DNA from: Bacteroidales bacterium
Lineage (GTDB): Bacteria > Bacteroidota > Bacteroidia > Bacteroidales > VadinHA17
Reading direction: 5' to 3'
Assembly (NCBI GenBank): GCA_031396165.1
Contig: JANNKF010000170.1
Location: forward strand, 1-49,132
DNA: 49,132 nucleotides
The notes beneath the pieces are model-generated. The model saw nothing but the letters and a program-made list of their open reading frames with translations. It made no database searches and was not told where the DNA came from. The position numbers and the translations under genes were made by a program. Shown here piece by piece: positions 9,684 through 45,696 of this stretch (positions are counted from its first letter, which is position 1; each line of letters begins with the position of its first letter).

Positions 9684-9768
9684 TTCAACCAATAATAATT
9701 CACCTTAAAGGTAAAAAATTATTATTAAAAGTATTCAGAGAAAGCGGCAGGATGAAAATTCAGAATAA

Positions 9769-10251: not shown

Positions 10252-10385
10252 TTTTTACGGGTCTAAAGTTATAGTGTTATATTATTAACAGGATGCAAAG
10301 ATTGTAAAAAATATTTGATTTTGCCCCTTGTACTGAGCGAATCAGAAGCGTGCTCCCTTCTCCCTGCTCCTTTTCACCACCGATA

Positions 10386-10404
10386 CCACGGATTAACACG
10401 GAAC
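10386..10404. repeat. Short inverted relative of repeat family F3 (CCGTG words with GGTTAA-like core)
   Basis: ACCACGGATTAACACGGAAC is the reverse complement of a condensed version of the 41-bp unit at 11910-11950 (TCCGTGTTA plus ATCCGTGGT). Confidence 0.5.
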
Positions 10405-10520
10405 TCTTTTTACCGCTAAATGCTGCCGATATGTCGTCGCTCTGCGGCTGAAAACCAGATCTCTATCATGATGACTCTCATAGTCTCTTCATCACTTCGT
10501 CTCTTCGTCTTCTTATCTCC

Positions 10521-10576
10521 CATTCTCCCATTCTCACATTCTCCCATTCTCACATTCTCACATTCTCACATTCTCC
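10521..10576. repeat. Tandem octanucleotide repeat (CATTCTCM)x7 inside a ~140-nt polypyrimidine-rich tract
   Basis: Read directly: CATTCTCC CATTCTCA CATTCTCC CATTCTCA CATTCTCA CATTCTCA CATTCTCC. The surrounding 10470-10610 contains almost no G on the plus strand. It lies between the divergent GNAT and beta-propeller genes. Confidence 0.9.
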
Positions 10577-10764
10577 CCTTCACATTCCGCCTTTCCTCCA
10601 TACTACCTGCAATAATATTTGCATTATTCATTCTTATTAACTAATTTTATAGGTGTATACATATTCATCGTTAACCAATTATCATTAACACGAGCTGCCT
10701 TTTGTTTTATATAATTGAATATCAAAATAATATGATGTAATTACTAATCAAATAAATAACCGAA

Positions 10765-29082: not shown

Positions 29083-30372
29083 ATGGCAACTACCAGACGA
29101 AAATTCATTACAACATCCATTGCAGGAGGCTTGGCTGCAACGCTGCCCGGTAAAGCATTTATCCCGGATTCTCCATTTCATATAACCGATGAGGTAAGAG
29201 GGAAATATTCAAAACTCGATGAAATACTAAAGAAACCGGTATTCAAAAAGGAGTTTTTTTCAACTCCGGTGATAATTGATACCCTTGAACTGCTGCGATA
29301 TAAAAACAGCTTCATCTGCAGGGTCAGATCAAAAGACGGTGCCGAGGGGATCTCAGTCGGCCATAGTGGTCAGTTGAGAACCCTCTACCCCGTTTTCACA
29401 AATCTGCTTCAGCCATTTTTCATTAATAAGGATGCACGCGACCTGGATCTGTTGATTGAAAAGGTATATATCTATCAGCTCAACTTCAGGCTATCGGGAA
29501 TGGCTCTCGGGGTGCCGCTTGCCACAATCGAATTTGCAATACTGGACATGATGGGACGAATAGCGAAGAAAACCATCGGACAGCTGATCGGTGATATAAA
29601 TAATCCAAATGTTGCTGTTTACCAGGCAACCGAATACCGTGAAAAACCTGTTGCAGAATCTATGGAACTGATAAAGAGGGATGTAGCAGAATATAATGCC
29701 AAAGCTCTGAAAATCAAAGTTGGCGGACTAATGTTCGGTACTGCCGATATTAATGCAGTTGGTCCGGCTGGCAGGACAGAAACGATCATTCCACTGGTCA
29801 GGAAAACTTTCGGAGATGATATGGTTCTTTATGGCGACTCAAACGGATTCTATTCAGTACCGGAAGCAATCAGAGTAGGAAAAATACTTGAAGAGTATAA
29901 ATTTCAGTTTTTTGAAGAACCTGTAATGTTCGACTGGTACGAAGAAACAAAACAGGTTGCCGATGCACTTTCAATACCTGTTGCCGGGGGAGAACAGGAG
30001 TATAGTCTTCATGGATTCCGGTGGCTGATCGCCAATGATGGTGTGCAGATAGTACAGCCCGATTATTTCTATTTTGGAGGTATGATACGCGCAATGAGGG
30101 TTGCCATGATGGCAAACGCTTTTGGGAAAAAATGTACTCCGCATATGACGGGTGGTGATCTGGGATTTCTGTATATGATTCAATTAGTATCAGCATTACC
30201 AAATGCTTTACCTTACCATGAATTTAAAGGATTTAAAACTGATATTATTTATGAATGTAAAACTTCACCCCTGAAAAGCGAAAATGGCGTGGTAAAGGTG
30301 CCAACAGGTCCGGGTTCAGGTGTGGAAATTGACCCGGAATTTATAAGGAAATTCCAGACTGTTCAGGGATGA
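29083..30372 (+). CDS. Enolase-superfamily enzyme, mandelate-racemase subgroup (acid-sugar dehydratase-like), with Tat signal peptide
   Basis: 429-aa ORF with Tat motif MATTRRKFITTSIAGGLAATLPGKAF. Catalytic and metal-ligand pattern: KxK (ALKIKVGG), Asp (YGDSNG), Glu (FFEEP), Glu (GGEQE), and an Asp...His pair (IVQPDYF, CTPHMTGG). Confidence 0.8.
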   Translation: MATTRRKFITTSIAGGLAATLPGKAFIPDSPFHITDEVRGKYSKLDEILKKPVFKKEFFSTPVIIDTLELLRYKNSFICRVRSKDGAEGISVGHSGQLRTLYPVFTNLLQPFFINKDARDLDLLIEKVYIYQLNFRLSGMALGVPLATIEFAILDMMGRIAKKTIGQLIGDINNPNVAVYQATEYREKPVAESMELIKRDVAEYNAKALKIKVGGLMFGTADINAVGPAGRTETIIPLVRKTFGDDMVLYGDSNGFYSVPEAIRVGKILEEYKFQFFEEPVMFDWYEETKQVADALSIPVAGGEQEYSLHGFRWLIANDGVQIVQPDYFYFGGMIRAMRVAMMANAFGKKCTPHMTGGDLGFLYMIQLVSALPNALPYHEFKGFKTDIIYECKTSPLKSENGVVKVPTGPGSGVEIDPEFIRKFQTVQG

Positions 30373-30427: not shown

Positions 30428-31348
30428 ATGATTACTCTGGGAATTCAAAGTGCCATTCTGGGCGATCTCTCTTTTGACGAGCTCATAGATTTTGCATCTG
30501 ATAACGGATTCTCCTGTGTCGAAATGATGTGCTGGCCAAAGGGACAGGCTAACAGGAAATATGCAGGTGTAACTCATATTGATGTTGGCACACTTGATGA
30601 TAATGAGATCAGCAGGATCAATAATAAGCTTAAAGATAGAAATGTATATATCTCAGGACTAGGCTATTATCCCAATCCGCTTGATCCTGACAAAGAGAAA
30701 TCAGATTTCTATATCGCTCATATTAAAAAAGTTATCGATGCTGCAGCCAGGCTTAATATTGGTATAATGAATACTTTTATTGGTGCCGATTCATCAAAAC
30801 ATGACGATGAGAACTTTGATAAATTCAGGCAGATCTGGCCACCCATTATCAGGTATGCAGAGGAGAAAAATGTTAAAATAGGAATTGAAAACTGTCCTAT
30901 GTTTTTTACAAGGGATGAATGGCCTTCGGGGAACAACCTGGCACACTCACCTGCATTATGGAGGAGAATGTTTGAAGCAATTCCATCCAAAAACTTCGGA
31001 TTGAATTATGATCCCTCCCACCTAATATGGCAGATGATGGATTATGTAAAGCCAATTTTCGAATTCAGGGAAAGGATTTTCCATGTGCACATAAAGGATG
31101 CCAGGGTTCTGTGGGAAAGAATAAATGAAGTTGGAATACTGACAACTCCGCTTAATTACCATACTCCAAAACTCCCCGGATTGGGAGATATTAACTGGGG
31201 AAAATTCTTTTCAGCACTTTACGAGGTCGGTTTTAACGGCAGTGCCTGTATAGAGGTTGAAGATAAATCCTTTGAAGGATCGCTTGAAAACAGAAAAACA
31301 GCACTCCTTCAAAGCAGAAACTACCTTCGTCAGTTTATAACCAAATAA
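30428..31348 (+). CDS. Sugar phosphate isomerase/epimerase (xylose-isomerase-like TIM barrel), no signal peptide
   Basis: 306-aa ORF. Family-typical blocks GFSCVEMMCWP, KIGIENCPM, GLNYDPSHLIWQ, HVHIKD and ACIEVED. Confidence 0.8.
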   Translation: MITLGIQSAILGDLSFDELIDFASDNGFSCVEMMCWPKGQANRKYAGVTHIDVGTLDDNEISRINNKLKDRNVYISGLGYYPNPLDPDKEKSDFYIAHIKKVIDAAARLNIGIMNTFIGADSSKHDDENFDKFRQIWPPIIRYAEEKNVKIGIENCPMFFTRDEWPSGNNLAHSPALWRRMFEAIPSKNFGLNYDPSHLIWQMMDYVKPIFEFRERIFHVHIKDARVLWERINEVGILTTPLNYHTPKLPGLGDINWGKFFSALYEVGFNGSACIEVEDKSFEGSLENRKTALLQSRNYLRQFITK

Positions 31349-31383: not shown

Positions 31384-31983
31384 ATGAAAAAAACAATCCT
31401 TGCACTATCAGTAATTTTGATTTTTTCCAATTTCTCAGCACCACAGAAAAAAGAATCTCTTTTCAACGGAAAAGACCTAACCGGATGGAAGATCTACGGC
31501 ACAGAAAAATGGTACGTTGAAAATGGTCTTCTTGTTTGCGAAAGTGGTCCAGATAAGAAATACGGTTACCTGGCAACTGAGAAATTCTACAAAAACTTCG
31601 ACATTACAGTTGAATTTCTTCAGGAAGCCAACGGGAACAGCGGTCTCTTTTTCCGTTCAACAATTGAGGGAACAAAAATTGCAGGCTGGCAGTGTGAGGT
31701 GGCTCCGCAGGGAAATGACACAGGTGGTATTTATGAATCTTACGGAAGAGGCTGGCTCAAACAGATTGAAGAAGAAAAAGAGAATATTCTTAAACCTGAA
31801 GAATGGAATAAACTGCGTCTCCGGGTCGAAGGCGACAGAGTGCAGACCTGGCTTAATGGGCAGCCAATGGTTGATTTTGCAGATGAAAAAATCGGTAAAG
31901 CAAACGGTTCAATTGCTCTCCAGATCCACGATGGAGGAGGTATTAAAGTCAAATGGCGCAATCTAATTATTCAGGAGCTTTAG
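31384..31983 (+). CDS. DUF1080 (3-keto-disaccharide hydrolase-like, concanavalin-type) secreted protein
   Basis: 199-aa ORF with a Sec signal peptide. Typical DUF1080 blocks LFNGKDLTGWKIYG, WYVENGLLVC, NFDITVEF, NSGLFFRS and GSIALQIHDGGGIKVKWRNL. Confidence 0.85.
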   Translation: MKKTILALSVILIFSNFSAPQKKESLFNGKDLTGWKIYGTEKWYVENGLLVCESGPDKKYGYLATEKFYKNFDITVEFLQEANGNSGLFFRSTIEGTKIAGWQCEVAPQGNDTGGIYESYGRGWLKQIEEEKENILKPEEWNKLRLRVEGDRVQTWLNGQPMVDFADEKIGKANGSIALQIHDGGGIKVKWRNLIIQEL

Positions 31984-33663: not shown

Positions 33664-34626
33664 TTATTTCGTCAAAGTGTAAAACTCATATCTTATTGTC
33701 CACTCGGTAACTTCACCCGGTTCAGCTTTTATTTTGATATATGGTTCAGGACAAAGTGTCGTTGCACAGTTCCAGTAATTTAGTTTCTGAAATGGTCTGT
33801 CGCATCTTATCCTTACACCTGCACCTGTTTTTCGGTTTTCAATTCTGATATCATAATCCTTTGGATCAGGTCCAAACCCTTTCATCTCACCGCAAAATAC
33901 TGTTTCTCCGTCTTTTACAGTCCGGAGGAACTGAATACTATTGTCTTTAATTTCAGCCAGCTCTCCGATACCCTGACCGGTGCCTGTAATATTGAATGGG
34001 AACTTAATTATAAAATCAGGACCAATCGGCTGATTATCAATAACAAAGAAATTATGATCATAAGCACTTGTTTCAATCGTTTTTGTTCCTGTGTTTTTAA
34101 GTGTATGATGAAGTACAAGTTCGGGCTTATCTTTTGTAAGACTGACTGTTTTCTCATAGTGATATGAGTAGATTTTATCGTTGAGATCATGAATAAATAA
34201 TACCTGGTCTGATTGTTTTTTCACACTCCATGTACCGGCATTTACCACAGGATAAAGTCTGCTGAAAGTGTATGGCTTATCATCAGGTTTTGTGAGTACA
34301 CCCACTCCTATCTTGATGAAATTCTCTCCTGGCTTTGTTTCCGGATAGTCCAGTGCAACGAACTCTTCAACCGGACCCATGATAACATCATGTATTTCAG
34401 GACTATATTTTGCGAACCACTGTCCAAAATAACTGTGTCCTTTATATTCAAGTACAGGCATATTGCCTGACCAGTCGAACCGGGTACCCCTGTAATATCC
34501 TTTCTTTGCATCGGGAAGATAAAATTTTGCATTTATTATACCATTTGTAATCTCTGCCTGTGGAATCTTCATAAACGGTAATGCGCTGATTGTCAGTCCG
34601 GATAAAAAATAATATAGTCTTTTCAT
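33664..34626 (-). CDS. Secreted galactose-mutarotase-like (aldose 1-epimerase superfamily) protein, tentative
   Basis: The track ORF starts at a TTG (34674). The ATG at 34626 gives MKRLYYFLSGLTISALPFM, a signal peptide. LKNTGTKTIETSAYDHNFF and NYWNCATTLCPEPY resemble mutarotase-fold blocks. Recognised by eye. Confidence 0.4.
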   Translation of the reverse strand: MKRLYYFLSGLTISALPFMKIPQAEITNGIINAKFYLPDAKKGYYRGTRFDWSGNMPVLEYKGHSYFGQWFAKYSPEIHDVIMGPVEEFVALDYPETKPGENFIKIGVGVLTKPDDKPYTFSRLYPVVNAGTWSVKKQSDQVLFIHDLNDKIYSYHYEKTVSLTKDKPELVLHHTLKNTGTKTIETSAYDHNFFVIDNQPIGPDFIIKFPFNITGTGQGIGELAEIKDNSIQFLRTVKDGETVFCGEMKGFGPDPKDYDIRIENRKTGAGVRIRCDRPFQKLNYWNCATTLCPEPYIKIKAEPGEVTEWTIRYEFYTLTK

Positions 34627-34670
34627 ACCTTTTAATTTTACTGTTAATATATTAACACAAGAATATTTTG

Positions 34671-35822
34671 TCAACCGTTCTTTGCCACTGCTTCAATTAG
34701 TCCTCTTATGTAACCTGCTGCATACAGGCTCCCAAGTGCACTGTAGCCCGGGCTTTGGTTACTGTCTCCAGCCATTGTCGGCACATGATCGGGACGTAAT
34801 GGACCCTGAAAACCTGTTTCAATATAAGCTTTCATGGCAGCATACATATCTATCTGGCCTTCATCATGAAAGGTCTCTTCAAAATTCATTTTCCCTCCCC
34901 TCACATTTCTGAAATGTACAAAATGAATCAGTTGCTTATTGCCAAATTCCCTGACAAGTGTTGGAATATCTTCACCCATAAGTGAAAAATTTCCCTGGCA
35001 CATTGTAATCCCGTTATTAGGACTGGGGTATATAGCAGCCATTCTTCTGAAAGCATCAGCTGTTGTCATAATTCTTGATATGCCCCTGATGCTCTCGACC
35101 TGGGGATCATCGGGATGCATCGCAAGTTTTATTCCGGCCTTTTCTGCTTCAGGAACAACAGCCTTCAGGAAGTATTCAAGGTTTTTCCAGAGACTCTCTT
35201 TGGATACATCCCCATATTTTGTAAGGGTGTTATCCTTAATATCCTCATAATCAAATGCTGTAACAAGCGCTCCTCCCCTTCCCGGACGATCAGTTGTGGT
35301 ACGTGCCCAGCTGATAACCGGCATCCAGTTATAACAGATTGTATCTATACCAGCCTTTGAGAGATTCTTCATCAGGGTTATGAAGTTTGAGATCTCCTGA
35401 TCCCTTCCTTCAAGGCCAAGCTTAGTTTTTTCACCAAGTGATGGCGGACCCTCAATCACTTCAAGTTTTAATCCTGCTTTTTCCCAGACATTTTTTACAG
35501 CAGAAACTGCCTCAAGATCCCATGAATTAACATTCTGCAGACCTGCCATCCGCGGATTTATTCCACCAACTGCGCCAAGCACATTTAGCTGCTTGCCGAA
35601 CTCAGCCTTTCTCTTTTCAGCTTCCAACCCTCCGAAATAAGCGAAACACATTTTAATCCCTGCGTCGGGAATATACTCTTTTGATTTAACCTTTTTCTTC
35701 GGTAGCATATCATGTAAAACAGAATCACCTGTCAGTCCTGAAACCGATGAATTCATTCCGATAACCGACAGAGCAGCCAGTGCTGTTCCTTTTTTGAGAA
35801 AATCCCTTCTATTATTCTTCAT
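34671..35822 (-). CDS. UxuA-family mannonate dehydratase homologue with Tat signal peptide
   Basis: 383-aa ORF with Tat motif MKNNRRDFLKKGTALAALSV. UxuA blocks align by eye with E. coli UxuA: CYNWMPVISWARTT, FLKAVVPEAEKAGIKLAMHPDDP, ITMCQG, HFVHFRNV, DMY, LRPDH and SPGYSALG. Confidence 0.8.
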   Translation of the reverse strand: MKNNRRDFLKKGTALAALSVIGMNSSVSGLTGDSVLHDMLPKKKVKSKEYIPDAGIKMCFAYFGGLEAEKRKAEFGKQLNVLGAVGGINPRMAGLQNVNSWDLEAVSAVKNVWEKAGLKLEVIEGPPSLGEKTKLGLEGRDQEISNFITLMKNLSKAGIDTICYNWMPVISWARTTTDRPGRGGALVTAFDYEDIKDNTLTKYGDVSKESLWKNLEYFLKAVVPEAEKAGIKLAMHPDDPQVESIRGISRIMTTADAFRRMAAIYPSPNNGITMCQGNFSLMGEDIPTLVREFGNKQLIHFVHFRNVRGGKMNFEETFHDEGQIDMYAAMKAYIETGFQGPLRPDHVPTMAGDSNQSPGYSALGSLYAAGYIRGLIEAVAKNG

Positions 35823-35840: not shown

Positions 35841-37202
35841 TCAAGGTTTAATTATTGTTCCATCACTCGATCTCACCTGCCAGTTCGAACGTGTGTTTAT
35901 CGGATATTTTGCTGCTTCCTTTTCATTTATATCAACTCCAAGTCCGGGCACCTCATTTACCGACATATAACCTTTATTCATTGTAGGGCAACCTGAAAAA
36001 ACCGATTGAAGCTTTTCTGAGAAACTAACCGATTCCTGAATCCCAAAATTCCAGACCGCCAGGTCCATATGGCAATTCGCAGCATGGCCCACAGGAGATA
36101 CATCACCCGGTCCGTGCCATGCAGTTCGTATGTTGAACCACTCACCCAAACGAGCTATTTTCATAGCAGGTGTTATTCCACCAATCTGCGAAACATGAAC
36201 CCGAATATAATCGAACCACTGGTTTACCATAGGCATTTTGAACTCATTAACATTATTGAAAAGTTCACCCATTGCAATTGGCACAGATGTGGTAGCCCGA
36301 AGCTGTTTGAACCACTCCATGTTCTCGGGAGAAAACGGATCTTCAATAAAGAAAGGATTATATTCCTCCACCCTTTTTATAAGATTAATTGCATCTATCG
36401 GTTGAACCCGTTCATGAATATCATGAAGCAGTTCAACTTCCTCACCACATGCTTTACGTACTGCTTCGAACATTTTCGGGACCGAATTAAGATAAGCTCT
36501 CTGATCCATGAAATTATCGGTTGCACCACCAAAGCCCACCTCTTTAAAGTCAGGCTTGGATCCCAAAGTTCCAACCCCGCCATAACCACCAAGCTGGATC
36601 CGGATATGCCTGAATCCCTGTTCCATAAAGCGCTTTACGGATTGGACTACCTCTTCATTTGTCCGGCCGCTGGCATGAGTATAGCATGGAACAGCAAACC
36701 TGGCTTTTCCTCCAAGCAACTGAGGTACAGGCATTCCGGCGCGTTTGCCTTTGATATCCCATAAAGCCTGATCTACACCACTTAGCGCATTATTCAAAAC
36801 CGGACCATTCCTCCAGTAAGAACTGACATAAGCCCCCTGCCACATATCTTCAATATTATCAACATCTTTGCCTGTGCAAAAATCATTCAGGTAACTATTA
36901 ATTGCAGTTATAACGACCTCAGCACGCTGGGTAAAGGTAGCACATCCCAATCCATATAACCCCGGTTCGGTTGTTTCAACTTTAACAACAATAAGGTTTG
37001 ATCCAGCAGGAGCAGTGGCTATTGCTTTCACGCTTTTTATTTTAACGGGAGCCATCCCGCTTGCGTAAGAGGGCTTTACATAATTTTCAGCCCTGGCAAA
37101 TGGCGCACCGAATAGTCCCAACAGTCCGGCAGTTGAACCGGCAGCCAGAAGTTTCATTGCATCGCGGCGGCTGGTTATTGGTTTAGATTCAGAATTTTTC
37201 AT
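35841..37202 (-). CDS. Enolase-superfamily ManD-subgroup (D-mannonate/D-gluconate dehydratase-like) protein with Tat signal peptide
   Basis: 453-aa ORF with Tat motif ITSRRDAMKLLAAGSTAGLLGLFGAPFARA. ManD-type blocks VKVETTEPGLYGLGCATFTQR, SSYWRNGPVLNNALSGVDQALWDIKGK, LLHDIHERV, FFIEDP and AMGELF. Confidence 0.8.
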   Translation of the reverse strand: MKNSESKPITSRRDAMKLLAAGSTAGLLGLFGAPFARAENYVKPSYASGMAPVKIKSVKAIATAPAGSNLIVVKVETTEPGLYGLGCATFTQRAEVVITAINSYLNDFCTGKDVDNIEDMWQGAYVSSYWRNGPVLNNALSGVDQALWDIKGKRAGMPVPQLLGGKARFAVPCYTHASGRTNEEVVQSVKRFMEQGFRHIRIQLGGYGGVGTLGSKPDFKEVGFGGATDNFMDQRAYLNSVPKMFEAVRKACGEEVELLHDIHERVQPIDAINLIKRVEEYNPFFIEDPFSPENMEWFKQLRATTSVPIAMGELFNNVNEFKMPMVNQWFDYIRVHVSQIGGITPAMKIARLGEWFNIRTAWHGPGDVSPVGHAANCHMDLAVWNFGIQESVSFSEKLQSVFSGCPTMNKGYMSVNEVPGLGVDINEKEAAKYPINTRSNWQVRSSDGTIIKP

Positions 37203-37275
37203 CTTTTGTTTTTTAGAATGAATAAAATTACAATAAAACCATCAAAAATTCATCAACATTGGCGTTTAGAATGAA

Positions 37276-37434
37276 TTATTCATAAACTTAGTTAAGATGC
37301 TCTATTCCTTTGTGTTCCTTTGTGCTGTACTTTGTGTTCCTTCGTGGTAAAAAAAAGCTTAACCACAAACCTGCATGCCGGTAGGCAGGGGCGCACTAAG
37401 GATTACACAAAGGATCACAAAGGTTTATGAATAA
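37276..37434. repeat. 159-bp palindromic element (family F4: CCTTTGTG / CACAAAGG words) in a divergent promoter region
   Basis: Termini TTATTCATAAAC (37276-37287) and GTTTATGAATAA (37423-37434) form a perfect 12-bp inverted repeat. The left half has CCTTTGTG x2, ACTTTGTG and CCTTCGTGG. The right half has CACAAAGG x2. The centre has TTAACCACAAA plus hairpin CCTGCATGCCGGTAGGCAGG (37370-37389). Confidence 0.8.
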
Positions 37435-37493
37435 AGCAGGTTAGATCTGTTAAATAGATAAAATTAAATATGTCATTTCTCCTCACAATTACG

Positions 37494-37501
37494 TAAATTT
37501 G
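37494..37501 (+). promoter_or_regulatory. Candidate Bacteroidota -7 promoter box (TAnnTTTG)
   Basis: TAAATTTG lies 34 nt upstream of the ATG at 37535. Confidence 0.35.
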
Positions 37502-37534: not shown

Positions 37535-38407
37535 ATGAAAAAACTATCAAGAAGAGAATTTCTGGGCAAAAGTGCACTTGGGATCGGATCGGTTGTTCTG
37601 GCATCCCGTCTCCCTGTTGAGGCATATGGTTCTGAACCTCCGAAACCCGTTAAAATGCCGCTGGGATTTCAGGTCTGGACTGTAAAGGATAAGCTGATTA
37701 AAGATTTTCCGGGAACATTAAAAGAGATTGCGGGTTTAGGATATAAATCCGTTGAGATGTGTTCTCCTCCCGGATATGAGAGTTCTGGGTTTGGACCACT
37801 GATGAAGCTGACAGCCAAAGAGATGAAGAAGATAATTAACGATGCCGGACTCTCTTTTGACAGCACTCATTATGGAATGTCGGAACTGAGAAAGCAGCTC
37901 GATGAACGGATTGCGTTTGCCGGAGAATCGGGTCAGAAACAGATGATACTCTCCAGTTTCGGATTACCAAAAACGGCAACTATGAGCGATTGGATGAAAG
38001 CTGCTGATGAGCTTAATACAATTGGAATGAAAACAAAACAATCGGGAATTCAGATTGGCTTTCACAACCACCATGCCGAATTTGAAAAAATAGATGGTAC
38101 ACTCATTTATGATGAATTGCTCAAACAGTTTGATCCTGACTATGTTAAGATGCAATTCCAGGTTGCAGTTATCAGCATCGGATATAAAGCTTCGGACTAT
38201 TTTACAAAATACCCGGGCAGATTCATCTCCGCACATCTTGCTGACTGGTCACCAACTGAAAAGAAAAATGTAACCCTCGGAAAGGGAATTGTTGATTGGA
38301 AAGAATTTTTCGCCGCGATCGATAAAGGTGGTGTTAAGAACATCTTTGTCGAAATGGATATAGAAACTTTTAAAGATAGTGCAACATTCATTAACTCCGG
38401 TCTTTAG
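37535..38407 (+). CDS. Sugar phosphate isomerase/epimerase (xylose-isomerase-like TIM barrel) with Tat signal peptide
   Basis: 290-aa ORF with Tat motif MKKLSRREFLGKSALGIGSVVLA. TIM-barrel blocks GYKSVEMCSP, IGFHNHHAEF and IFVEMD. Confidence 0.8.
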   Translation: MKKLSRREFLGKSALGIGSVVLASRLPVEAYGSEPPKPVKMPLGFQVWTVKDKLIKDFPGTLKEIAGLGYKSVEMCSPPGYESSGFGPLMKLTAKEMKKIINDAGLSFDSTHYGMSELRKQLDERIAFAGESGQKQMILSSFGLPKTATMSDWMKAADELNTIGMKTKQSGIQIGFHNHHAEFEKIDGTLIYDELLKQFDPDYVKMQFQVAVISIGYKASDYFTKYPGRFISAHLADWSPTEKKNVTLGKGIVDWKEFFAAIDKGGVKNIFVEMDIETFKDSATFINSGL

Positions 38408-38439
38408 GCCGGAGATAACCTAATCAAAATACTTTAAAA

Positions 38440-39948
38440 ATGGCACGTTCAAAACAAATTAATCGTCGTGAATTTCTGGGATCAGCCGCAGCTGCTTCCC
38501 TCGCTATTACAATTGTTCCCCGTCAGGTTCTTGGTGGTAAGGGTTATATAGCCCCAAGTGATAAAGTAACTCTTGGATACATAGGATGCGGAACACAGGG
38601 TTTGAGAGAGATGGCATCTCTCATTGCAAATCCGGCATTGCAGATCGTTGCCGTATGCGACCCTAACAAATTCACCACCGATTATGTGGACTGGTCAGCC
38701 AATGATGTCAGGAATGGTATCAGAAAGGCATTAGGCGATAATACCTGGGGTGAAGCAATAAAAGGTATTCCCGGCGGAAGGGACATCGGTCAGGAATTTG
38801 TCCAGAAATACTATGGAAAAGCCAAAGATTCAGGCACATACAAAGGATGTGCATCTTATGAGGATTTCAGGGAATTGCTTGAAAAAGAAAAAGACCTGAA
38901 TGCTATAAAAATCATGACTCCTGATCATTTGCATGGAACTGTTGCAATTGCATCCCTTAAAAAAGGGAAACATGTGGTAACTCATAAACCAATTGCCAAC
39001 AGGATGCATGAAGCAAAACTTCTGATCGATACTGCTAAGAAAACCGGTCTGAGCACACATCTTCTTGCCTGGAGTAACAGACCTGATTATCTGATCATCA
39101 AAAAGTGGATTGACGAAGGAAAAATCGGAAAACTAAAAGAGATTCATAACTGGTCCAACAGACCTGTGTGGCCACAGTGGCAGGCAAATCCGGTTGAAAC
39201 TGTTCCGGTACCAAAAAACTTTAACTGGGATCTCTGGCTTGGACCTGTTCCTGACCGTCCTTATCATCCTAATTACACACATGCAGTGTTCCGTGGGTGG
39301 TATGACTTTGGCGCAGGAAGTATTGCAGATATGGGGCATTACAGCCTTTTCCCGTTATTTCTTGCGCTCGGAATAAATAAACCGGCAATCAGCGCCGAAT
39401 CATATGCCACAACAACATGTGCCCTGCAAAACAATGTATCCGTAGGGGTTAAAAATGATGTGGCTTTTCCTTTATCCTGCATGGTAAGATTTAAGTTTGA
39501 AGCACAGCCAACACTTCCTGCTTTCGACCTGTATTGGTACGATGGAGGTATGAGACCATTCCCCACACCGGATCTGGAAGCTGTAGGGAAAACATTTGAA
39601 AGGGAAGGAATGATGTTTGTGGGTGAAAAAGGAAGAATAGTAGCCGGATTCAGAGGAGAGAAACCTGTGCTTTATGCAAATGGAACAACTGCGGTGGGAG
39701 AACCGGTAACTGCAGCAAGTCTCGCACAGGATAGTAACGATGTATGGATCAACTCATTCAGGAACAATACCCAGTCCCCGGGTAGTTTTCTATATGCCGG
39801 ACCGGTAACTGAAACCATACTTTTGGGTGGAGTAGCATTGAGGGCAGGTAAAAAGGTTGAATATGACACAGTTAATATGAAAATCAGCAATCTGCCGGAT
39901 GCGAACAAGTACCTCGTAAGGGAGTATCGTAAGGGTTGGGAACTTTAG
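38440..39948 (+). CDS. Gfo/Idh/MocA-family NAD(P)-dependent oxidoreductase with Tat signal peptide
   Basis: 502-aa ORF with Tat motif SKQINRREFLGSAAAASLAITIV. Rossmann start LGYIGCGTQGLREM. Also IMTPDHLHGTVAIASLKKGKHVVTHKP. Confidence 0.85.
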   Translation: MARSKQINRREFLGSAAAASLAITIVPRQVLGGKGYIAPSDKVTLGYIGCGTQGLREMASLIANPALQIVAVCDPNKFTTDYVDWSANDVRNGIRKALGDNTWGEAIKGIPGGRDIGQEFVQKYYGKAKDSGTYKGCASYEDFRELLEKEKDLNAIKIMTPDHLHGTVAIASLKKGKHVVTHKPIANRMHEAKLLIDTAKKTGLSTHLLAWSNRPDYLIIKKWIDEGKIGKLKEIHNWSNRPVWPQWQANPVETVPVPKNFNWDLWLGPVPDRPYHPNYTHAVFRGWYDFGAGSIADMGHYSLFPLFLALGINKPAISAESYATTTCALQNNVSVGVKNDVAFPLSCMVRFKFEAQPTLPAFDLYWYDGGMRPFPTPDLEAVGKTFEREGMMFVGEKGRIVAGFRGEKPVLYANGTTAVGEPVTAASLAQDSNDVWINSFRNNTQSPGSFLYAGPVTETILLGGVALRAGKKVEYDTVNMKISNLPDANKYLVREYRKGWEL

Positions 39949-40084: not shown

Positions 40085-40588
40085 ATGATCAGACGTATTT
40101 TTTCATTAGTAATGATTGCTGCGATTTTTACATCATGCGGCAATACCGGTAAGAAGGAAGTTTCCGCAACAGCTGAAGGAACAGAAAATGCTGTTAAAGT
40201 GGAATTTGCATCTCTTGTTGAAAACCCCGACAATTTCGTAGGGAAAAATATTGTAGTTTCTGGCAAAGTTGTACATGTATGCACCGTAAGTGGCAAAAAA
40301 TTATTTATTGTTGGTGAAAATCCTGATGTCAGGCTATTTATTGCAGCCGGAGAAAATATGCCAAAATTTCCTTTGGAACTTCTTGGAAGCGAAGTTACAG
40401 TTGAAGGTACTATTACAAAAGCAGGAGGAGCACCCGCAATGGCAGCCGGTGAAAACCATGCAATGCAAGTTGCGGAAGCCAAGGCTGCACCTATGGCTGC
40501 AGACACCTGCGAAACAGAGACAGCTCTTGCAAAACAATCTTCACTTGCCAACATTATCATGGACTACAAAAGCCATACTGTAAAATAG
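40085..40588 (+). CDS. Hypothetical lipoprotein (Ala-rich C-terminal half)
   Basis: 167-aa ORF with lipoprotein signal MIRRIFSLVMIAAIFTSC. An antisense 160-aa ORF (40078-40560) exists, but it has no signal or start context and is explained by GCN-rich codons. Confidence 0.6.
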   Translation: MIRRIFSLVMIAAIFTSCGNTGKKEVSATAEGTENAVKVEFASLVENPDNFVGKNIVVSGKVVHVCTVSGKKLFIVGENPDVRLFIAAGENMPKFPLELLGSEVTVEGTITKAGGAPAMAAGENHAMQVAEAKAAPMAADTCETETALAKQSSLANIIMDYKSHTVK

Positions 40589-40611: not shown

Positions 40612-40667
40612 GTAGGGACATGCCATTGCATGTCCCTTATTTTAGACATGCCGTGGCATGTCCCTAC
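40612..40667. repeat. REP-like GTAG-plus-hairpin palindrome (family F7); first hairpin plus T-tract may terminate the upstream gene
   Basis: GTAGGGACATGCC (40612-40624) is complementary to GGCATGTCCCTAC (40655-40667). The internal hairpin GGGACATGC-CATT-GCATGTCCC (40615-40636) is followed by TTATTTT (40637-40643). Confidence 0.75.
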
Positions 40668-40683
40668 ATTTAATAATACCCGA

Positions 40684-41235
40684 ATGAATCTCTCTAAAAT
40701 GAACCGGATCACACATCGTGATATAGGGTATCTTATTGCCGGACTAACAATTATTTATGCTATCTCCGGTATTGCACTCAACCATAAAAACAACTGGAAT
40801 CCAAATTACATCTTTGTTATCAGGACATTTAAGACAGAGGTTCCTGTTGCGAGAGAAACGTTTAATGATGAAGTTGCAAAAAGCATTCTCAGAAGCATAG
40901 GTGCTGATCAGGAATATAAGACATTTCATTTCCCGTCAGGAAACAAAGTTACAATGTTTGTCGATGGCGGCTTTGTACAGCTAAACACGGTTACAGGCGA
41001 AGGAGCAGTAGAAATAATCAGTAAAAGACCGTTATTTTACCAGATCAATTTTCTCCATTATAACCCTGGCAAATGGTGGAAATATTTCAGTGATATCTTT
41101 TGCCTGGCACTCATAATGGTTACAATAACCGGACTTTTTATAATTAAGGGCAAAAACGGTATAACTAAAAGGGGAGCGATCCTGACAATAATCGGAATCC
41201 TTCTCCCCTTAATTTTTCTGTTAATTTATAAATAA
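40684..41235 (+). CDS. PepSY-associated TM-helix-like membrane protein, tentative
   Basis: The track ORF (from 40630) starts inside the F7 palindrome. The ATG at 40684 gives MNLSKMNRITHRDIGYLIAGLTIIYAISGIALNH, which is the H-R-x-x-G plus TM pattern of PepSY_TM proteins. A second TM lies near the C-terminus. Confidence 0.4.
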   Translation: MNLSKMNRITHRDIGYLIAGLTIIYAISGIALNHKNNWNPNYIFVIRTFKTEVPVARETFNDEVAKSILRSIGADQEYKTFHFPSGNKVTMFVDGGFVQLNTVTGEGAVEIISKRPLFYQINFLHYNPGKWWKYFSDIFCLALIMVTITGLFIIKGKNGITKRGAILTIIGILLPLIFLLIYK

Positions 41236-41308: not shown

Positions 41309-43462
41309 CTATATCTTTTTCAGCGCCTCCAGCACTCTTGCAGGTGTCATCGGCATCCTGTAAAGTCTTGCTCCGGTAGCATCATAAATTGCATTGGCAA
41401 TTACAGCGCCGATAACAACTATAGCAGGTTCGCCTCCGCCCTGGGGAGCCTTGTCTTTCCTGTCAAGAATTACAGTGTCTATTTTAGGAAGCCAGGAGAA
41501 TTTCGGAATATTATAAGTATCAAATCCTCTGTCGATAATTTTACCTCCTTCAAAGAAAAGTTCTTCTGCAAAAGTATATCCCAGCCCCATCATTATACAT
41601 CCTTCCATCTGAATGGTGGCTCCTTCAGGATTAACACACAAACCCATATCCTGTGCACAGGCAATTCTTAAAACAGTCACCTTACCGGTAGCTCTGTCTA
41701 CCTTTACCTCAGCCATATGAGCCACCCATGTTCCGGCATCGGTACCGACTGCCACTCCGATGCCCCGTCTGCTTGGAGACTTAGCGGCAACATAACCGAA
41801 TTTTTCAGCTACCGCTTTAAGGCAGCCGATCATCTTTTCGTCTTTAAGGTTTTTCAGACGGAATTCAAGAGGATCAATTCCCGCTGCAGAAGCCATAATA
41901 TCAATCTGAACCTCACGTGCAAAAGTATTTGTATTTGCATTAGGTCCACGCCATGGTCCGGTACTGAACGGATGAACCGGAGGTGCCTCCCTGTTGCGGC
42001 TATAGTCGGTTGTCTTTGCGTTCGGAACATCATAGAGTGTTTCGGAACCTCTTGTGCCGGCAAAATATACATGATAATCCCAGAGTTTTATCATTCCCTC
42101 TTTATCAATTCCCGACTTAATTTTTATTACTGCTGCAGAATGAAAATTATCATAGAAAAACTCCTCATCACGCGTCCATAAAACCATAACCGGTTTACCG
42201 GCAAGTTTAGCCAGCTTTGCAGCCTCAATGCCCTGCTGATAAGCACTCTTTCCACCGAAACCACCACCCACAAACGGGACTATCACCCTTACCTTATCGA
42301 GAGTCAATCCAAGTTCCCTTGAAAGTGCATCCTGTAATGGATAAGGTGTCTGGGTTGCGGCCCAAACAGTCATTTTGCCATTTTCCAATTGCGCAAGAGC
42401 AGTATGGGTTTCCATCGGGGCATGTGCCAGATACGGATCGTGAAATTCCGATTCAAAAATCTTTTCGGATTGCTGACGTCCAATCTCGAGATCTCCCTTT
42501 GTTCTGCCTACATTGGCCCTTGAATCAACCTTAAGCATCCATTCAAAAATTGTTTTATCGTTAACAGGCATCTCATTGAATGAGTATTCTGCTTTTATTT
42601 TAGAGAGAGATGTGCCGGCTTTTTCCCAGCTTTCATGCAAAACAGCTACCAGATCTCCCTGGCGAATAATTTTTACGCCCGGATCCTTTTCTGCCTCAGA
42701 ATAATTTACCGTAGTAAGTTTTGCACCATGCGACGGTGGCCTGAGTATTCTTGCATAGACCATACCCGGAAGTTTCATGTCGCCGGTATATTTTGCAGCT
42801 CCCGTAACTTTCAGATTAGCATCGCTGTGAATGTAAGATTTGCCTACATACGTGAATTTAGTATAATCCTCCGGAGTTGGTTTTACATCAAGGAATTTTT
42901 CAATTCTCTTACCCTTGGCCAGTTGACCATAACTCGCTGAATTTTTAGAATTCTTTGTATCGGTTATAATCCCTTCTTTTACTTCAAGTTGTGTTGCAGG
43001 AACTCCCAGCTGCACAGATGCGAGATCCAGAAGCACGCCTCTGGCTTCCGCTGCTGCTGCCCTCATTGCAGGACCAAAGCCCCTTGTAGTCATTGATCCC
43101 CAGGTACCTCCGTCCCATGGACAAAGATCCGTATCACCCATAACCATCTTAATTTTTTCAAGAGGAACATTCAACTCATCTGCCATCATCTGTGGCAGGG
43201 AGGTAATGATGCCCTGTCCCATTTCAATTTTTCCTGTAAAACAGGTTACCATGCCATCCCCGGCAATCGACAGAAATGCATTATAGTCTTTGGGCAGGCT
43301 TCGTGCCTGATCTCCCGGAAGTCCCAGTAAATCTATCGCACCCCAAGGCCGGAAAAAGATTATTATACCGCTCCCGAGAATTTTGAAAAAGTCACGTCTT
43401 GGTATTCCACTGCGCCCTGTGGATGCAGATTTATCAATATTTGCCATTGCTTCTTTTTTCAT
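41309..43462 (-). CDS. Xanthine-dehydrogenase-family molybdopterin-binding large subunit (IorB/aldehyde-oxidoreductase-like) with Tat signal
   Basis: 717-aa ORF with Tat motif GIPRRDFFKILGSGIIIFF. Typical blocks GKIEMGQGIITSLPQMMADEL, VPFVGGGFGGKS and GGGEPAIVVIGAVIANAIYDATG. Confidence 0.85.
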   Translation of the reverse strand: MKKEAMANIDKSASTGRSGIPRRDFFKILGSGIIIFFRPWGAIDLLGLPGDQARSLPKDYNAFLSIAGDGMVTCFTGKIEMGQGIITSLPQMMADELNVPLEKIKMVMGDTDLCPWDGGTWGSMTTRGFGPAMRAAAAEARGVLLDLASVQLGVPATQLEVKEGIITDTKNSKNSASYGQLAKGKRIEKFLDVKPTPEDYTKFTYVGKSYIHSDANLKVTGAAKYTGDMKLPGMVYARILRPPSHGAKLTTVNYSEAEKDPGVKIIRQGDLVAVLHESWEKAGTSLSKIKAEYSFNEMPVNDKTIFEWMLKVDSRANVGRTKGDLEIGRQQSEKIFESEFHDPYLAHAPMETHTALAQLENGKMTVWAATQTPYPLQDALSRELGLTLDKVRVIVPFVGGGFGGKSAYQQGIEAAKLAKLAGKPVMVLWTRDEEFFYDNFHSAAVIKIKSGIDKEGMIKLWDYHVYFAGTRGSETLYDVPNAKTTDYSRNREAPPVHPFSTGPWRGPNANTNTFAREVQIDIMASAAGIDPLEFRLKNLKDEKMIGCLKAVAEKFGYVAAKSPSRRGIGVAVGTDAGTWVAHMAEVKVDRATGKVTVLRIACAQDMGLCVNPEGATIQMEGCIMMGLGYTFAEELFFEGGKIIDRGFDTYNIPKFSWLPKIDTVILDRKDKAPQGGGEPAIVVIGAVIANAIYDATGARLYRMPMTPARVLEALKKI

Positions 43463-43464
43463 GC

Positions 43465-43941
43465 TTATTTCCCTCCTTTCATTTCAGTGGAAGCCGTCTT
43501 AACAGCCTCAACGATCCTTACATGAGCGCCACAACGGCATAAATTATCTTCCATTCCTTCCTTTATCTGCCCTGTAGTCGGAGAAGGATTTTTAAGTAAC
43601 AAACCAGTTGCATTCATGATCATCCCGGGTGTACAGAAACCGCACTGCAGCGCATCATGCTCAACGAATGCTTTCTGAACAGGGTGTAACTTTCCATTGA
43701 CGGAAAGACCTTCTATTGTAACCACTTTTTTACCGGCAACTTCCCCAACGGGGATCTGGCAGGATCTTACAGCTTCATTGTCTATTAATACAGTACATGA
43801 ACCACAGAATCCCATTCCGCAGCCATACTTGGTTCCTGTAAGCCCGAAATGATCACGCAGCACCCACAAGAGTGTCTGTGCAGGATCGAGCAGGGCTTCA
43901 GTTTTTTTTCCATTTAACTGAAAAGCAATCTTCTGTTCCAT
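43465..43941 (-). CDS. (2Fe-2S)-binding small subunit of the molybdenum hydroxylase
   Basis: 158-aa ORF. Two cluster motifs: GCGMGFCGSCTV and CGFCTPGMIM...CRCGAH. It lies 2 nt upstream of the large-subunit gene. Confidence 0.9.
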   Translation of the reverse strand: MEQKIAFQLNGKKTEALLDPAQTLLWVLRDHFGLTGTKYGCGMGFCGSCTVLIDNEAVRSCQIPVGEVAGKKVVTIEGLSVNGKLHPVQKAFVEHDALQCGFCTPGMIMNATGLLLKNPSPTTGQIKEGMEDNLCRCGAHVRIVEAVKTASTEMKGGK

Positions 43942-43943
43942 AA

Positions 43944-44537
43944 TTACATTTTTTGATTAATTTCCTTTAAATATTCTTCATAAGTATCAAAGTCCCTGAG
44001 TATTTCCTGATCCTCCGTCTCAACCTCCAGAACGTCGTCAGGGAAGAGTTGTGCCAATGATCTCAGGCCTTCATTATCGTTAAGATCCTTAATTTTGTAA
44101 AAGTACTTTCTTCCTATCATCAGCGGGTGTCCGCGCTTTTTATTATTAACCGGTATAACAATCTCTTTTTCAGATGAATTAAATGCTTCTATTACTGTGT
44201 TTGTTACTCCGGAAGTTATAAATGGCTGATCGCCCTGAAAAACCAAAACAGCATTGCAATTCACGGGTATATTTATAATTCCGCATTTCACTGATGAAAG
44301 CATTCCAAGTTTGTAATTATCATTATAACAGAGTATTACATTCGATTTTATAATCAATTCCGTAATCTTCTCCTTCTCTGCCCCCAAAACTACCAATGTA
44401 TTATCGATATTCGATCCGGTAACATTTTCAATAACCCTCTCCAGCATACTCTTTCCGTTAAAGTTAAGAAGCATTTTCGGAAATCCCATTCTTTTTGATT
44501 CCCCTGCTGCAAGTATTATCGCCCAGATCTCTCCCAT
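43944..44537 (-). CDS. Nucleotidyltransferase, MocA-like molybdenum cofactor cytidylyltransferase
   Basis: 197-aa ORF with N-terminal AIILAAGESKRMGFPKMLL motif. Context is between XdhC and the hydroxylase subunits. Confidence 0.7.
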   Translation of the reverse strand: MGEIWAIILAAGESKRMGFPKMLLNFNGKSMLERVIENVTGSNIDNTLVVLGAEKEKITELIIKSNVILCYNDNYKLGMLSSVKCGIINIPVNCNAVLVFQGDQPFITSGVTNTVIEAFNSSEKEIVIPVNNKKRGHPLMIGRKYFYKIKDLNDNEGLRSLAQLFPDDVLEVETEDQEILRDFDTYEEYLKEINQKM

Positions 44538-44550
44538 TCTTAAATTCTAT

Positions 44551-45696
44551 TTACTCCCGATTTCGGATTTCGGATTGCGGATTGCGGATTTGCTGAGCCT
44601 GTCGAAGCACCGACTTCGGTCTTCCGTCTTCCGACTTCCTGCTATTCTTCACCATTACCAGCTGGGCAGCAATACTAACTGCAATCTCCTCTACTGTTTG
44701 CGATTTTATCTCAATGCCAACAGGCGCATAAATTGTATTCCACTGGGAATCAGTCGCCCATCCATTGTCGATAAATTGTTTTCGCATTTCTGCAATCTTC
44801 TTTCTGCTGCCGATCATACCTGTATATGCCAAACCGGCACCTATGCATGGTTTTAATGCTGCGGCATCATCTTTATGTCCGCGAGTAACTATTACAACAT
44901 AAGTATCATCGCTTTTTTCAATACTAAGCATCGCTTCCCCGATATTACCGACAATTATATGGCTGGCATCAGGTAAATTATAACTGTTAGCATATTCCGG
45001 ACGGTCATCTATCACTGTTACTTCAAAGCCCAGCATAATTCCCAGATGAGAAAGTGATCTTCCGATGTGGCCTGCTCCGGCAATTATCAGTCTGGGTAAG
45101 GGAAGAACCGGCTCAAGATAAAATATTGAAGCAGGTTTCTCACCGGTTAAAGACAATTTCAATTCTCTGTAATCTGAAGGGTCAGCTTTTGTAATAATTG
45201 AATTTACTTCCGGTTCTATCTTCTCCATAAACTCAACCGGTATTTCCGGTTTATTATGACTGTCCATCCAGTACCGGTTTATAAGTACATTATCTTCTGT
45301 AAAATTGGTTACCATAGTTATAAGTACACCGGGTATTCTTTTCGAGAGAGATCTTTTCACCTTTTCAAAAACGGAGTAATAATTCAGGAGATTCGAATCA
45401 ATCAATATTCGTATCTGGCCACCGCAAATTGCCTGATCAACATCGGTAATATTATTTGCAAGATTGAAATCTATATGATATGATTTTTTCGATATTATTG
45501 ATTCGCTGACCAGTTTCTGAACTGAGCCCTCAACAATTCCTCCTCCTACCGTACCAGCTATCAGACCCTCTTCGCTGAATAACGCCGAGCTCCCCGGTTT
45601 CTGAGGTGTGGATCCCTCAGCTGAAGTTACTGTAGCAAGTACCAGTGGTGAATTACCGGATTGATTTTCAAGAATCTGAAGGTAAATATTTTTCAT
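44551..45696 (-). CDS. XdhC/CoxI-family molybdenum-hydroxylase maturation factor (repeat-encoded C-terminal tail)
   Basis: 381-aa ORF. N-terminal block LATVTSAEGSTPQKPGSSALF...GTVGGGIVEG. Rossmann block RLIIAGAGHIGRSLSHLGIMLGFEVTVIDDRPEY. The last ~30 aa (SRKSEDGRPKSVLRQAQQIRNPQSEIRNRE) are encoded by heptamer repeats at 44556-44641. Confidence 0.8.
   Translation of the reverse strand: MKNIYLQILENQSGNSPLVLATVTSAEGSTPQKPGSSALFSEEGLIAGTVGGGIVEGSVQKLVSESIISKKSYHIDFNLANNITDVDQAICGGQIRILIDSNLLNYYSVFEKVKRSLSKRIPGVLITMVTNFTEDNVLINRYWMDSHNKPEIPVEFMEKIEPEVNSIITKADPSDYRELKLSLTGEKPASIFYLEPVLPLPRLIIAGAGHIGRSLSHLGIMLGFEVTVIDDRPEYANSYNLPDASHIIVGNIGEAMLSIEKSDDTYVVIVTRGHKDDAAALKPCIGAGLAYTGMIGSRKKIAEMRKQFIDNGWATDSQWNTIYAPVGIEIKSQTVEEIAVSIAAQLVMVKNSRKSEDGRPKSVLRQAQQIRNPQSEIRNRE
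44556..44641. repeat. Two opposed heptanucleotide tandem arrays (family F8) inside the 3' end of the XdhC ORF
   Basis: 44556-44590: CCCGATT TCGGATT TCGGATT GCGGATT GCGGATT. 44614-44641: CTTCGGT CTTCCGT CTTCCGA CTTCCTG, whose reverse complement is the TCGGAAG type. Confidence 0.85.

Follow-up and report, generated by a model that had tools for sequence, protein, structure and literature searches.

A twin-arginine-exported oxidoreductase and TIM-barrel pair of Bacteroidales as a candidate module for non-hydrolytic glycoside cleavage

Two adjacent genes on the plus strand of a Bacteroidales contig (positions 1 to 49,132 of JANNKF010000170.1, assembly GCA_031396165.1; this whole stretch of 49,132 nucleotides is called the window below) encode a xylose-isomerase-like TIM-barrel protein, P0001, and an oxidoreductase of the Gfo/Idh/MocA family, P0002 (Table 1). 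The initial annotation had described them as a two-gene operon with a gap of 32 nt, and the open reading frames (ORFs) lie exactly so. The two genes form one operon: no terminator-like site was found between them, and a hairpin followed by a T-run is located at 40614-40637, 3' of the next small lipoprotein gene. TAnnTTTG is the consensus of the -7 promoter motif of Bacteroidetes, and a match to it, TAAATTTG, is found 33 nt 5' of the ATG of P0001. We infer from this match that TAAATTTG may be the promoter of the operon; promoters of this type are not covered by a sigma-70 scan. Both genes are under purifying selection (non-synonymous divergence dN 0.13-0.26, synonymous divergence dS saturated).

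Table 1. Position of the two-gene operon, its elements and neighbouring genes in the window
Feature	Position	Strand	Basis
P0001, 290-aa xylose-isomerase-like TIM barrel	37535-38407	+	ORF; AP_endonuc_2
P0002, 502-aa Gfo/Idh/MocA oxidoreductase	38440-39948	+	ORF; Pfam, NCBIfam, PDB, Foldseek
Candidate promoter, TAAATTTG, match to Bacteroidetes -7 motif TAnnTTTG	37494-37501	+	read from sequence
P0001 twin-arginine signal, residues 4-27, motif SRREFLG	37544-37615	+	TIGR01409
P0002 twin-arginine signal, residues 7-30, motif NRREFLG	38458-38529	+	TIGR01409
P0002 subfamily-specific insert in the Rossmann domain, ~55 residues (78-132)	38671-38835	+	ortholog/paralog alignment
GHL6-like protein	26730-28892	+	TIGR01409, 21.1 bits, above cut-off
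Enolase-superfamily protein	29083-30372	+	RR motif, 13.8 bits, below 16.7 cut-off
Second TIM barrel	30428-31348	+	AP_endonuc_2, E 1.5e-44
DUF1080 protein, 199 aa, 3' of second TIM barrel	31384-31983		3keto-disac_hyd, E 2.2e-39
UxuA-like protein	34671-35822	-	TIGR01409, 22.4 bits, above cut-off
ManD-like protein	35841-37202	-	TIGR01409, 19.1 bits, above cut-off

By sequence, profile and predicted fold, the closest solved relatives of both proteins are enzymes that cleave glycosides by oxidation and elimination. In the AL and BT systems, glycosides are oxidised at the 3-OH by AL3/BT3 (BT2158), a dehydrogenase that tightly binds NAD and is exported by the twin-arginine translocation (Tat) pathway. 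The 3-keto-beta-glucoside 1,2-lyase AL1/BT1 (BT2156) depends on a metal and also acts slowly as a hydratase; lyase activity on 3-keto-alpha-glucosides and hydration of glycals are the work of the DUF1080 proteins AL2/BT2. NAD is recycled through reduction of the 3-keto-glucose product (Nasseri et al., bioRxiv 10.1101/2024.03.25.586180). BT2158 and BT2156 alone are active in vitro (PMC13515148), and BT2158 was also described as a Tat-exported protein thought to carry bound NAD(P) (Liu et al., PMC8121099). Pfam confirmed the family assignments of the initial annotation: P0002 matches the GFO_IDH_MocA Rossmann domain (PF01408, E 2.7e-15) and GFO_IDH_MocA_C2 (PF19051, E 4.7e-19), and P0001 matches AP_endonuc_2 (E 5.4e-14). 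The best NCBIfam model for P0002 is BT_2158_fam 'glycoside 3-dehydrogenase' (NF058561) with 276.9 bits, or 233 bits in the genome scan, followed by levoglucosan dehydrogenase and IolG with 66 and 48 bits. Among all PDB sequences, phmmer found the glucoside-3-dehydrogenase AL3 of Alistipes (8TDF/8TDH) at E 1e-53 and a profile search at 1e-139; levoglucosan dehydrogenase 6A3F (5e-14), DgpA (~1e-9), GFOR (~1e-6) and the GH109 enzyme 6T2B (1.8e-4) were weaker. For P0001, the same database returned 8TCD/8TCR, 8TCS and 8TCT with E-values from 3e-22 to 3e-19 and 8BVK with 3e-12; 8BVK is AtOGE, the O-glycoside beta-eliminase of Agrobacterium tumefaciens, whose role and active site have been described (PMC10628242). 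AlphaFold (AF2) models, built from alignments of orthologs and paralogs from the same genome (A1, A2), gave the same picture. The P0002 model, with a predicted local distance difference test (pLDDT) score of 76.8, had AL3 as top Foldseek hit in the PDB (E 8e-27, TM 0.63/0.69), with the next family nine orders of magnitude behind. The P0001 model (pLDDT 86.3) was closest in fold to the BT1/AL1 lyases, which took ranks 1, 2, 4 and 5 (E 2e-17 to 9e-16, TM 0.71-0.78); rank 3 was 3OBE, an uncharacterised sugar phosphate isomerase/epimerase, and rank 7 AtOGE (E 1e-13). In a tree of the 20 Tat-Gfo paralogs of the genome, P0002 fell into a clade (support 1.0) with two true BT_2158-family members and branched earliest within it. 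The reading of the pair as an oxidation-elimination (3-keto-glycoside) module, which the initial annotation had put forward, is thus supported by the relatives of both proteins.

The pairing of the oxidoreductase with a TIM barrel is kept in related genomes. A scan of one genome per species yielded 80 loci with an ortholog of P0002 (68-83% identical), all in Bacteroidales/Bacteroidia metagenome-assembled genomes from fens, lakes, sediments and digesters. When genes on the same strand and within 300 nt of the oxidoreductase ortholog were counted as neighbours, a Tat TIM barrel adjoined it in 61 of the 80 loci, and in 52 of the 65 loci in which both flanks are complete, so the pairing is far beyond chance. 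The partner can be an ortholog of P0001 (hereafter the P1 type), located upstream in 26/80 and downstream in 4/80 loci, or another Tat-signal AP_endonuc_2 TIM barrel, T2, located downstream in 31/80. A DUF1080 gene followed downstream in 1/80, and 18/80 had neither a TIM barrel nor a DUF1080 neighbour, six of these being cut by a contig end; rechecking the 18 with hidden Markov models revealed no missed TIM barrel. T2 (~290 aa, e.g. locus L021:3374-4249, +) has no significant identity to P0001 and is absent from the genome of the window, where the best match (33% identical, contig C5) lies beside another Tat-Gfo gene. Genomes with P1 lacked a T2 ortholog and one T2 genome lacked a P1 ortholog; partner type tracks the oxidoreductase tree only partly, and the active-site residues of the oxidoreductase are identical whichever TIM barrel adjoins. 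These patterns fit the 'interchangeable modules' described for related systems (Nasseri et al., bioRxiv 10.1101/2024.03.25.586180). The other flanking genes vary (e.g. GH172, two-component systems, an M3-like peptidase), which identifies the oxidoreductase together with a lyase-family gene as the conserved unit.

At larger distances, the oxidoreductase subfamily is patchy within Bacteroidales, since a class-level sample of 150 genomes contained no ortholog at E 1e-100 or better and an order-level sample of Bacteroidales contained one in 7 of 200 genomes (40-75% identity). A TIM-barrel or DUF1080 gene, both from known lyase/hydratase families, adjoins each of these seven orthologs or lies within ~2 kb of it. 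The genes found upstream were P1 and, directly adjoining in two genomes, DUF1080; those found downstream were T2, a third TIM type and, in one case, two TIM barrels; a divergent Gfo and DUF1080 pair completes the set. P1 orthologs occurred in the 200-genome sample only in genomes that also carry the oxidoreductase (3/3, one of them unlinked). Database searches with the two proteins returned at least 7200 and at least 6863 clusters at E 1e-20 and 1e-10, respectively; many have 75-94% identity, and the orthologs are abundant in metagenomes.

Both proteins are predicted to be exported by the Tat pathway. In agreement with the initial annotation, their N-termini, which share the motif S/N-R-R-E-F-L-G, scored 22.7 bits (P0001) and 17.8 bits (P0002) with the TAT_signal_seq model TIGR01409, above the curated cut-off of 16.7. 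The arginine pair is kept in 118 of 119 database orthologs of P1 and in all 79 of 79 oxidoreductase orthologs from the loci; R6 and R7 of P0001 are invariant among 148 orthologs, as are R9 and R10 of P0002 in alignment A1. P0002 thereby shares the twin-arginine signal of glycoside 3-dehydrogenases of the BT_2158/AL3 type, and its signal stretch also matches positions 1-37 of BT_2158_fam. A tatC gene is present in the same genome (C3:5171-5872), and residues 1-33 of P0001 have low pLDDT in the AF2 model.

The key residues of P0002 are G49xGxxG, D74, H182-K183-P184, R241, W244, D297, H300-Y301 and R405. Like AL3/BT3, it is a Tat-exported Gfo/Idh/MocA protein of ~500 aa with a long C-terminal domain, encoded beside a lyase-family gene, and it can be aligned with them over residues 134-502, at 24-33% identity. 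AL3 residues were mapped from the 8TDF chain index, to which 29 was added to obtain the published numbering. The nucleotide-binding motif (G49-C-G-T-Q-G) and the lysine of the xKP motif (K183, present in 80/80 orthologs) are both in place. The Arg/Trp/Asp set of the AL3 sugar pocket is conserved as well: R241, W244 and D297, equivalent to AL3 Arg192, Trp195 and Asp248, are each found in 80/80 orthologs and are invariant in all paralogs of the clade. P0002 differs from AL3 in lacking the ~38-aa C-terminal insertion of the latter, and from the family in having HLLAWS in place of QMGNQG. From these data, P0002 is a candidate glycoside 3-dehydrogenase with tightly bound NAD that would oxidise C3.

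P0001 is as long as AL1/BT1, shares with them the xylose-isomerase-like TIM-barrel fold at 27-28% identity and is likewise encoded next to a 3-dehydrogenase gene, but it carries a Tat signal in place of the Sec signal of AL1 (bioRxiv 10.1101/2024.03.25.586180). Its candidate active site consists of H112, H177, H179, Q209, H234 and E273, and H112, H177, H179, H234 and E273 are found in 148/148 orthologs. E273 corresponds to the catalytic Glu272/275 of AL1/BT1 and H112 and H179 to the substrate-contacting His103/107 and His180/184; H177 and H234 are the equivalents of His178/182 and His237/240. AtOGE has the same fold with an H-x-H motif (metal ligand His132 and catalytic His134, equivalent to H177 and H179), and its His189 and Glu233 correspond to H234 and E273; overall identity is 22%, and both Asp163 and Glu161 of AtOGE are replaced by Gln in P0001. 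Hence, P0001 is a candidate 3-keto-glycoside 1,2-lyase/hydratase.

The observations made here concern homology and fold, export signals and the structure of the operon, and the conservation of adjacency and of residues. On this basis, the pair is probably a module for non-hydrolytic cleavage of glycosides in the periplasm, of the type 'oxidise C3, then eliminate', for which chemical steps, regiochemistry and substrate are deduced by analogy. Both proteins would first fold in the cytoplasm, P0002 with NAD bound via G49xGxxG and D74 and P0001 probably with a divalent metal, and the folded proteins would then be exported to the periplasm by the Tat system. There, P0002 would turn a glycoside or oligosaccharide into a 3-keto-glycoside by oxidising the 3-OH of the sugar at the non-reducing end, with K183, D297 and Y301 as putative catalytic set and R241 and W244 holding the sugar. 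The metal site of P0001 (H177 and H234, with Q209/E273) may bind the 3-keto group, and H-2 might be abstracted by E273, by analogy to BT1, or by H179, by analogy to AtOGE. Expulsion of the aglycone would leave a 2-hydroxy-3-keto-glycal, which could be hydrated by P0001 itself or by one of the DUF1080 or TIM-barrel paralogs of the genome. Finally, the NADH form of P0002 would reduce the 3-keto sugar and thereby regenerate NAD+, making the cycle redox-neutral and independent of a free cofactor pool.

Several observations weigh against this interpretation. The score of 277 bits for P0002 is far under the equivalog cut-off of BT_2158_fam (750 bits). Three of the six AL3 residues in contact with the sugar or NAD are changed: the NAD-mediating Gln161 is His182 in P0002 (80/80 orthologs), His252, which contacts the 3-OH, is Tyr301 with His300 beside it (80/80), and Tyr349, which contacts the 2-OH, is Arg405 (78/80). 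The BT_2158-clade paralogs from the same genome retain His at the position of AL3 His252. P0002 further contains the insert of ~55 residues (78-132), modelled by AF2 as two helices (87-98 and 114-126) and with a conserved IPGGRD at 110-115, which is absent from AL3 and the BT_2158-family paralogs and was skipped in alignments to 8tdf; its model is also of low confidence in the substrate-loop regions 243-254, 269-289 and 326-342. In P0001, two of the three metal-ligand residues, both His, are kept, and the third, Asp211/214 of AL1/BT1 and Asp163 of AtOGE, is Gln209 in 148/148 orthologs. The preceding Glu is replaced by Gln207 and the substrate-stacking Trp214/217 by Val212, both invariant in the orthologs, and the closest paralogs from the same genome keep the Trp. 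Since the Asp, Glu and Trp are lost, the metal site and hence the chemistry may differ. Genes for a DUF1080 protein, a hydratase, a SusC/D transporter or a regulator are absent from the operon. Only 30 of the 80 loci have P1 as partner, and among those with complete flanks, 12 lack an adjacent TIM barrel. Equivalog status of P0002 with BT2158 and of P0001 with BT2156 was rejected because of the 277 versus 750 bits and the differing active-site residues.

As several contact residues differ, the substrate is probably not the same as that of the AL and BT enzymes, and the changes in the 2-OH/3-OH pocket and the metal site suggest a specificity unlike theirs. At the position of Gln209, the T2 type has Asp, as do 17 of the 18 TIM paralogs from the genome and 78 of 95 full-length database representatives at 50% identity; Gln was found in 13 of the 95, all among the closest relatives of P0001, which marks P1 as a small and distinct Gln-type subfamily. 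Tentatively, one may go further and see in P1 (Gln for Asp, Glu and Trp lost) and its oxidoreductase (Tyr301, His182, Arg405 and the insert) a distinct sub-type of the 3-keto route that acts on another substrate class, e.g. C2-modified or anionic sugars, by a differently metallated or metal-independent elimination/hydration, with P1 and T2 as naturally interchangeable lyase modules; we hold this extension to be possible rather than probable.

In a rival explanation without any glycosidic cleavage, the pair would belong to a wider periplasmic island for oxidation and dehydration of sugars or sugar acids. P0002 would then oxidise or reduce a free sugar, sugar acid or keto-sugar, and P1 would act as isomerase, epimerase or dehydratase on its product, together with the divergently encoded Tat ManD-like and UxuA-like dehydratases and the nearby Tat molybdenum hydroxylase. 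The change of Asp to Gln in P1 suggests chemistry unlike that of AL1/BT1, Arg405, which replaces the Tyr that binds the 2-OH, could accommodate an anionic group, and the xylose-isomerase-like fold includes isomerases, epimerases and dehydratases. The ManD-like, UxuA-like and GHL6-like neighbours also pass the Tat model, the enolase-superfamily protein has the RR motif below the cut-off, and in 40/80 loci the molybdenum-hydroxylase operon is found no more than 7 kb from the oxidoreductase ortholog. However, ManD and UxuA homologs are found near the pair in only 10/80 and 8/80 loci, and ManD is missing in a genome of the same genus. The partners that are conserved at all divergence levels are the TIM-barrel and DUF1080 lyase-family genes, and glycoside-specific enzymes lead clearly among the structural relatives, so that we consider such an island improbable.

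A periplasmic route for pseudo-glycosides, cyclitols or anhydro-sugars, resembling either IolG/IolE and inosose or levoglucosan dehydrogenase and LgdB, appears still less probable. It is true that levoglucosan dehydrogenase 6A3F is the second-best solved match of P0002, that LevoglcsnDh and IolG are among its weak NCBIfam matches, that P0001 weakly matches IolE (3CNY, E 9e-12 by profile; TIGR04379, E 4e-6) and that the AL/BT enzymes cleave the pseudo-glycoside acarbose (bioRxiv 10.1101/2024.03.25.586180). But the matches cover mainly the Rossmann part and are at least 40 orders of magnitude weaker than those to AL3/AL1, and the scores fall far short of every curated cut-off (48.3 versus 355 bits for TIGR04380, IolG, and 26.7 versus 290 bits for TIGR04379, IolE). 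The known inositol and levoglucosan routes are cytoplasmic, in contrast to the predicted Tat export of P0001 and P0002. The least probable explanation, which we would give hardly any weight, is a glycosidase of the GH109/GH4 type: P0002 would then be self-contained and NAD-dependent and carry out oxidation, elimination, hydration and reduction in one active site, and the TIM barrel would be unrelated or merely act downstream. GH109 enzymes are Tat-exported Gfo/Idh/MocA proteins of Bacteroidota, and GH109 structures were among the matches of P0002. Yet they are distant compared with AL3: 6T2B was found at E 1.8e-4 versus 1e-53, and 2IXA only at Foldseek rank 23 (E 6e-16). The genome's full-length match to PF19051, which we guess to be the GH109-like protein, is a different paralog (C34), and the strong conservation of lyase-family genes beside that of the oxidoreductase speaks for elimination by a partner. 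Taken together, the assignment of P0002 as a GH109, DgpA, levoglucosan, inositol or GFOR enzyme was rejected because of the distance of these matches and the missed cut-offs; clustering with a non-glycoside family, which the initial annotation had named as contrary evidence, was not observed in comparisons with these five families.

Among known systems, the P2B11 glucuronide-cleaving cluster (8TDI) comprises two Gfo oxidoreductases and two TIM 'isomerases', four genes compared with two here, and has no DUF1080 protein. It shows that Gfo and TIM modules are functional without DUF1080 and that specificity can shift to glucuronides or 6-anionic sugars at modest sequence similarity. P0002 matches 8TDI weakly (E 4e-12 by profile), and since P2B11 is of Gram-positive origin, it presumably lacks Tat export. 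DgpA with DgpB/C and levoglucosan dehydrogenase (LGDH) with LgdB are cytoplasmic systems that follow the logic of the pair, 3-oxidation by a Gfo-family enzyme and then Mn-dependent elimination by a TIM barrel. The likeness to DgpA and DgpB/C drawn in the initial annotation stands for this logic and is otherwise an analogy: P0002 matches DgpA (E 1e-9) and LGDH (5e-14) only distantly, and no match of the DgpB/C type was found for P0001 in PDB sequence and profile searches. GFOR of Zymomonas is another Tat-exported Gfo enzyme, with a non-dissociable nicotinamide cofactor and redox-neutral ping-pong turnover, and we take it to have Tyr instead of His at the catalytic Asp+4 position, as P0002 does. 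Its target is C1 of free glucose, it works without a lyase partner, and its match to P0002 is weak (E 1e-6). In the AtOGE operon, the oxidation step is catalysed by GlycDH, which we take to be a FAD-dependent enzyme and not a Gfo enzyme, and AtOGE itself is presumably cytoplasmic or Sec-independent. The eliminase DgpB/C is a heterodimer (PMC10628242).

The locus is not a new kind of system. The type of pathway (2023-2024), the pairing of Tat-Gfo with TIM-barrel proteins and the interchangeability of modules were already published; new are only, for each enzyme, a well-conserved and uncharacterised subfamily whose active-site changes are defined, and the alternation of TIM partners. As an alternative to classical glycosidases, the oxidise-eliminate-hydrate-reduce route has been recognised only recently, and hardly anything has been charted of its diversity beyond the human gut. 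The well-conserved subfamily of both core enzymes is found in Bacteroidales of freshwater, fens and sediments, with thousands of near-orthologs in metagenomes. The defined substitutions and the swapped lyase partner offer concrete targets for new substrate specificities, and the locus allows a test of how necessary the Asp metal ligand is in the elimination chemistry.

The second TIM barrel and the DUF1080 protein, which the initial annotation had pointed out ~6 kb upstream of the pair, are present (Table 1), but their linkage is loose, as they lie within 7 kb in only 8/80 loci. This TIM barrel lacks a signal peptide; among solved structures it matches 2ZDS best (E 1.5e-14), and it weakly matches the 2-hydroxy-3-keto-glucal hydratase AtHYD (8RO4, E 8.5e-6). 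For the DUF1080 protein, 4JQT was the closest match (E 6e-25), and BT2/AL2 (8TDA) reached only 2.4e-4. With co-occurrence in 7-10/80 loci, the data do not support a tight linkage between the pair and either the ManD/UxuA operon or the upstream TIM/DUF1080/DUF362 block. Exported homologs of the normally cytoplasmic sugar-acid dehydratases are unusual. The Tat molybdenum-hydroxylase operon (41309-45696, -) encodes a MoCo subunit, a 2Fe-2S subunit, a cytidylyltransferase and XdhC, and its frequent proximity to the oxidoreductase may reflect shared ancestry or a functional link. A lipoprotein gene (40085-40588) and a PepSY-like gene (40630-41235) are kept in 17/80 loci. The commonest divergent neighbour of the pair (26/80 loci) is a secreted protein of ~321-336 aa (33664-34674, -), for which Pfam and PDB sequence searches gave no match. 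Between the ManD-like operon and the pair, 37272-37445 is occupied by a dispersed repeat of ~170 bp with at least 20 further copies (94-98% identity) on other contigs of the genome, which looks like a MITE/REP-like element. A 159-bp 'palindrome' in the divergent promoter was rejected as locus-specific regulatory site because it belongs to this dispersed repeat.

The pair is not unique in its genome (478 contigs), in which the families involved are greatly expanded: ~20 Gfo/Idh/MocA proteins, nearly all with RR, 19 AP_endonuc_2 TIM barrels, at least 12 of them with RR, and at least 11 DUF1080 genes. The two true BT_2158-family genes are located at C428:14795-16285 and C435:11262-13629 and reach 877 and 863 bits, both above the cut-off of 750; the C435 gene has a DUF1080 gene just upstream in the same orientation, as in BT2157-BT2158. 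Among the other loci, the P1 gene upstream of the oxidoreductase is apparently truncated or split in two frames at L029:6369-6755 and L055:6044-6896, possibly by decay or an assembly error. In one subclade (L063, L075, L079, L085, L089; e.g. L079:5248-6918, 8731-10776), an M2/M3-like metallopeptidase gene precedes the oxidoreductase, and a conserved protein of ~680 aa without Pfam match is encoded 3' of it, after T2 where present.

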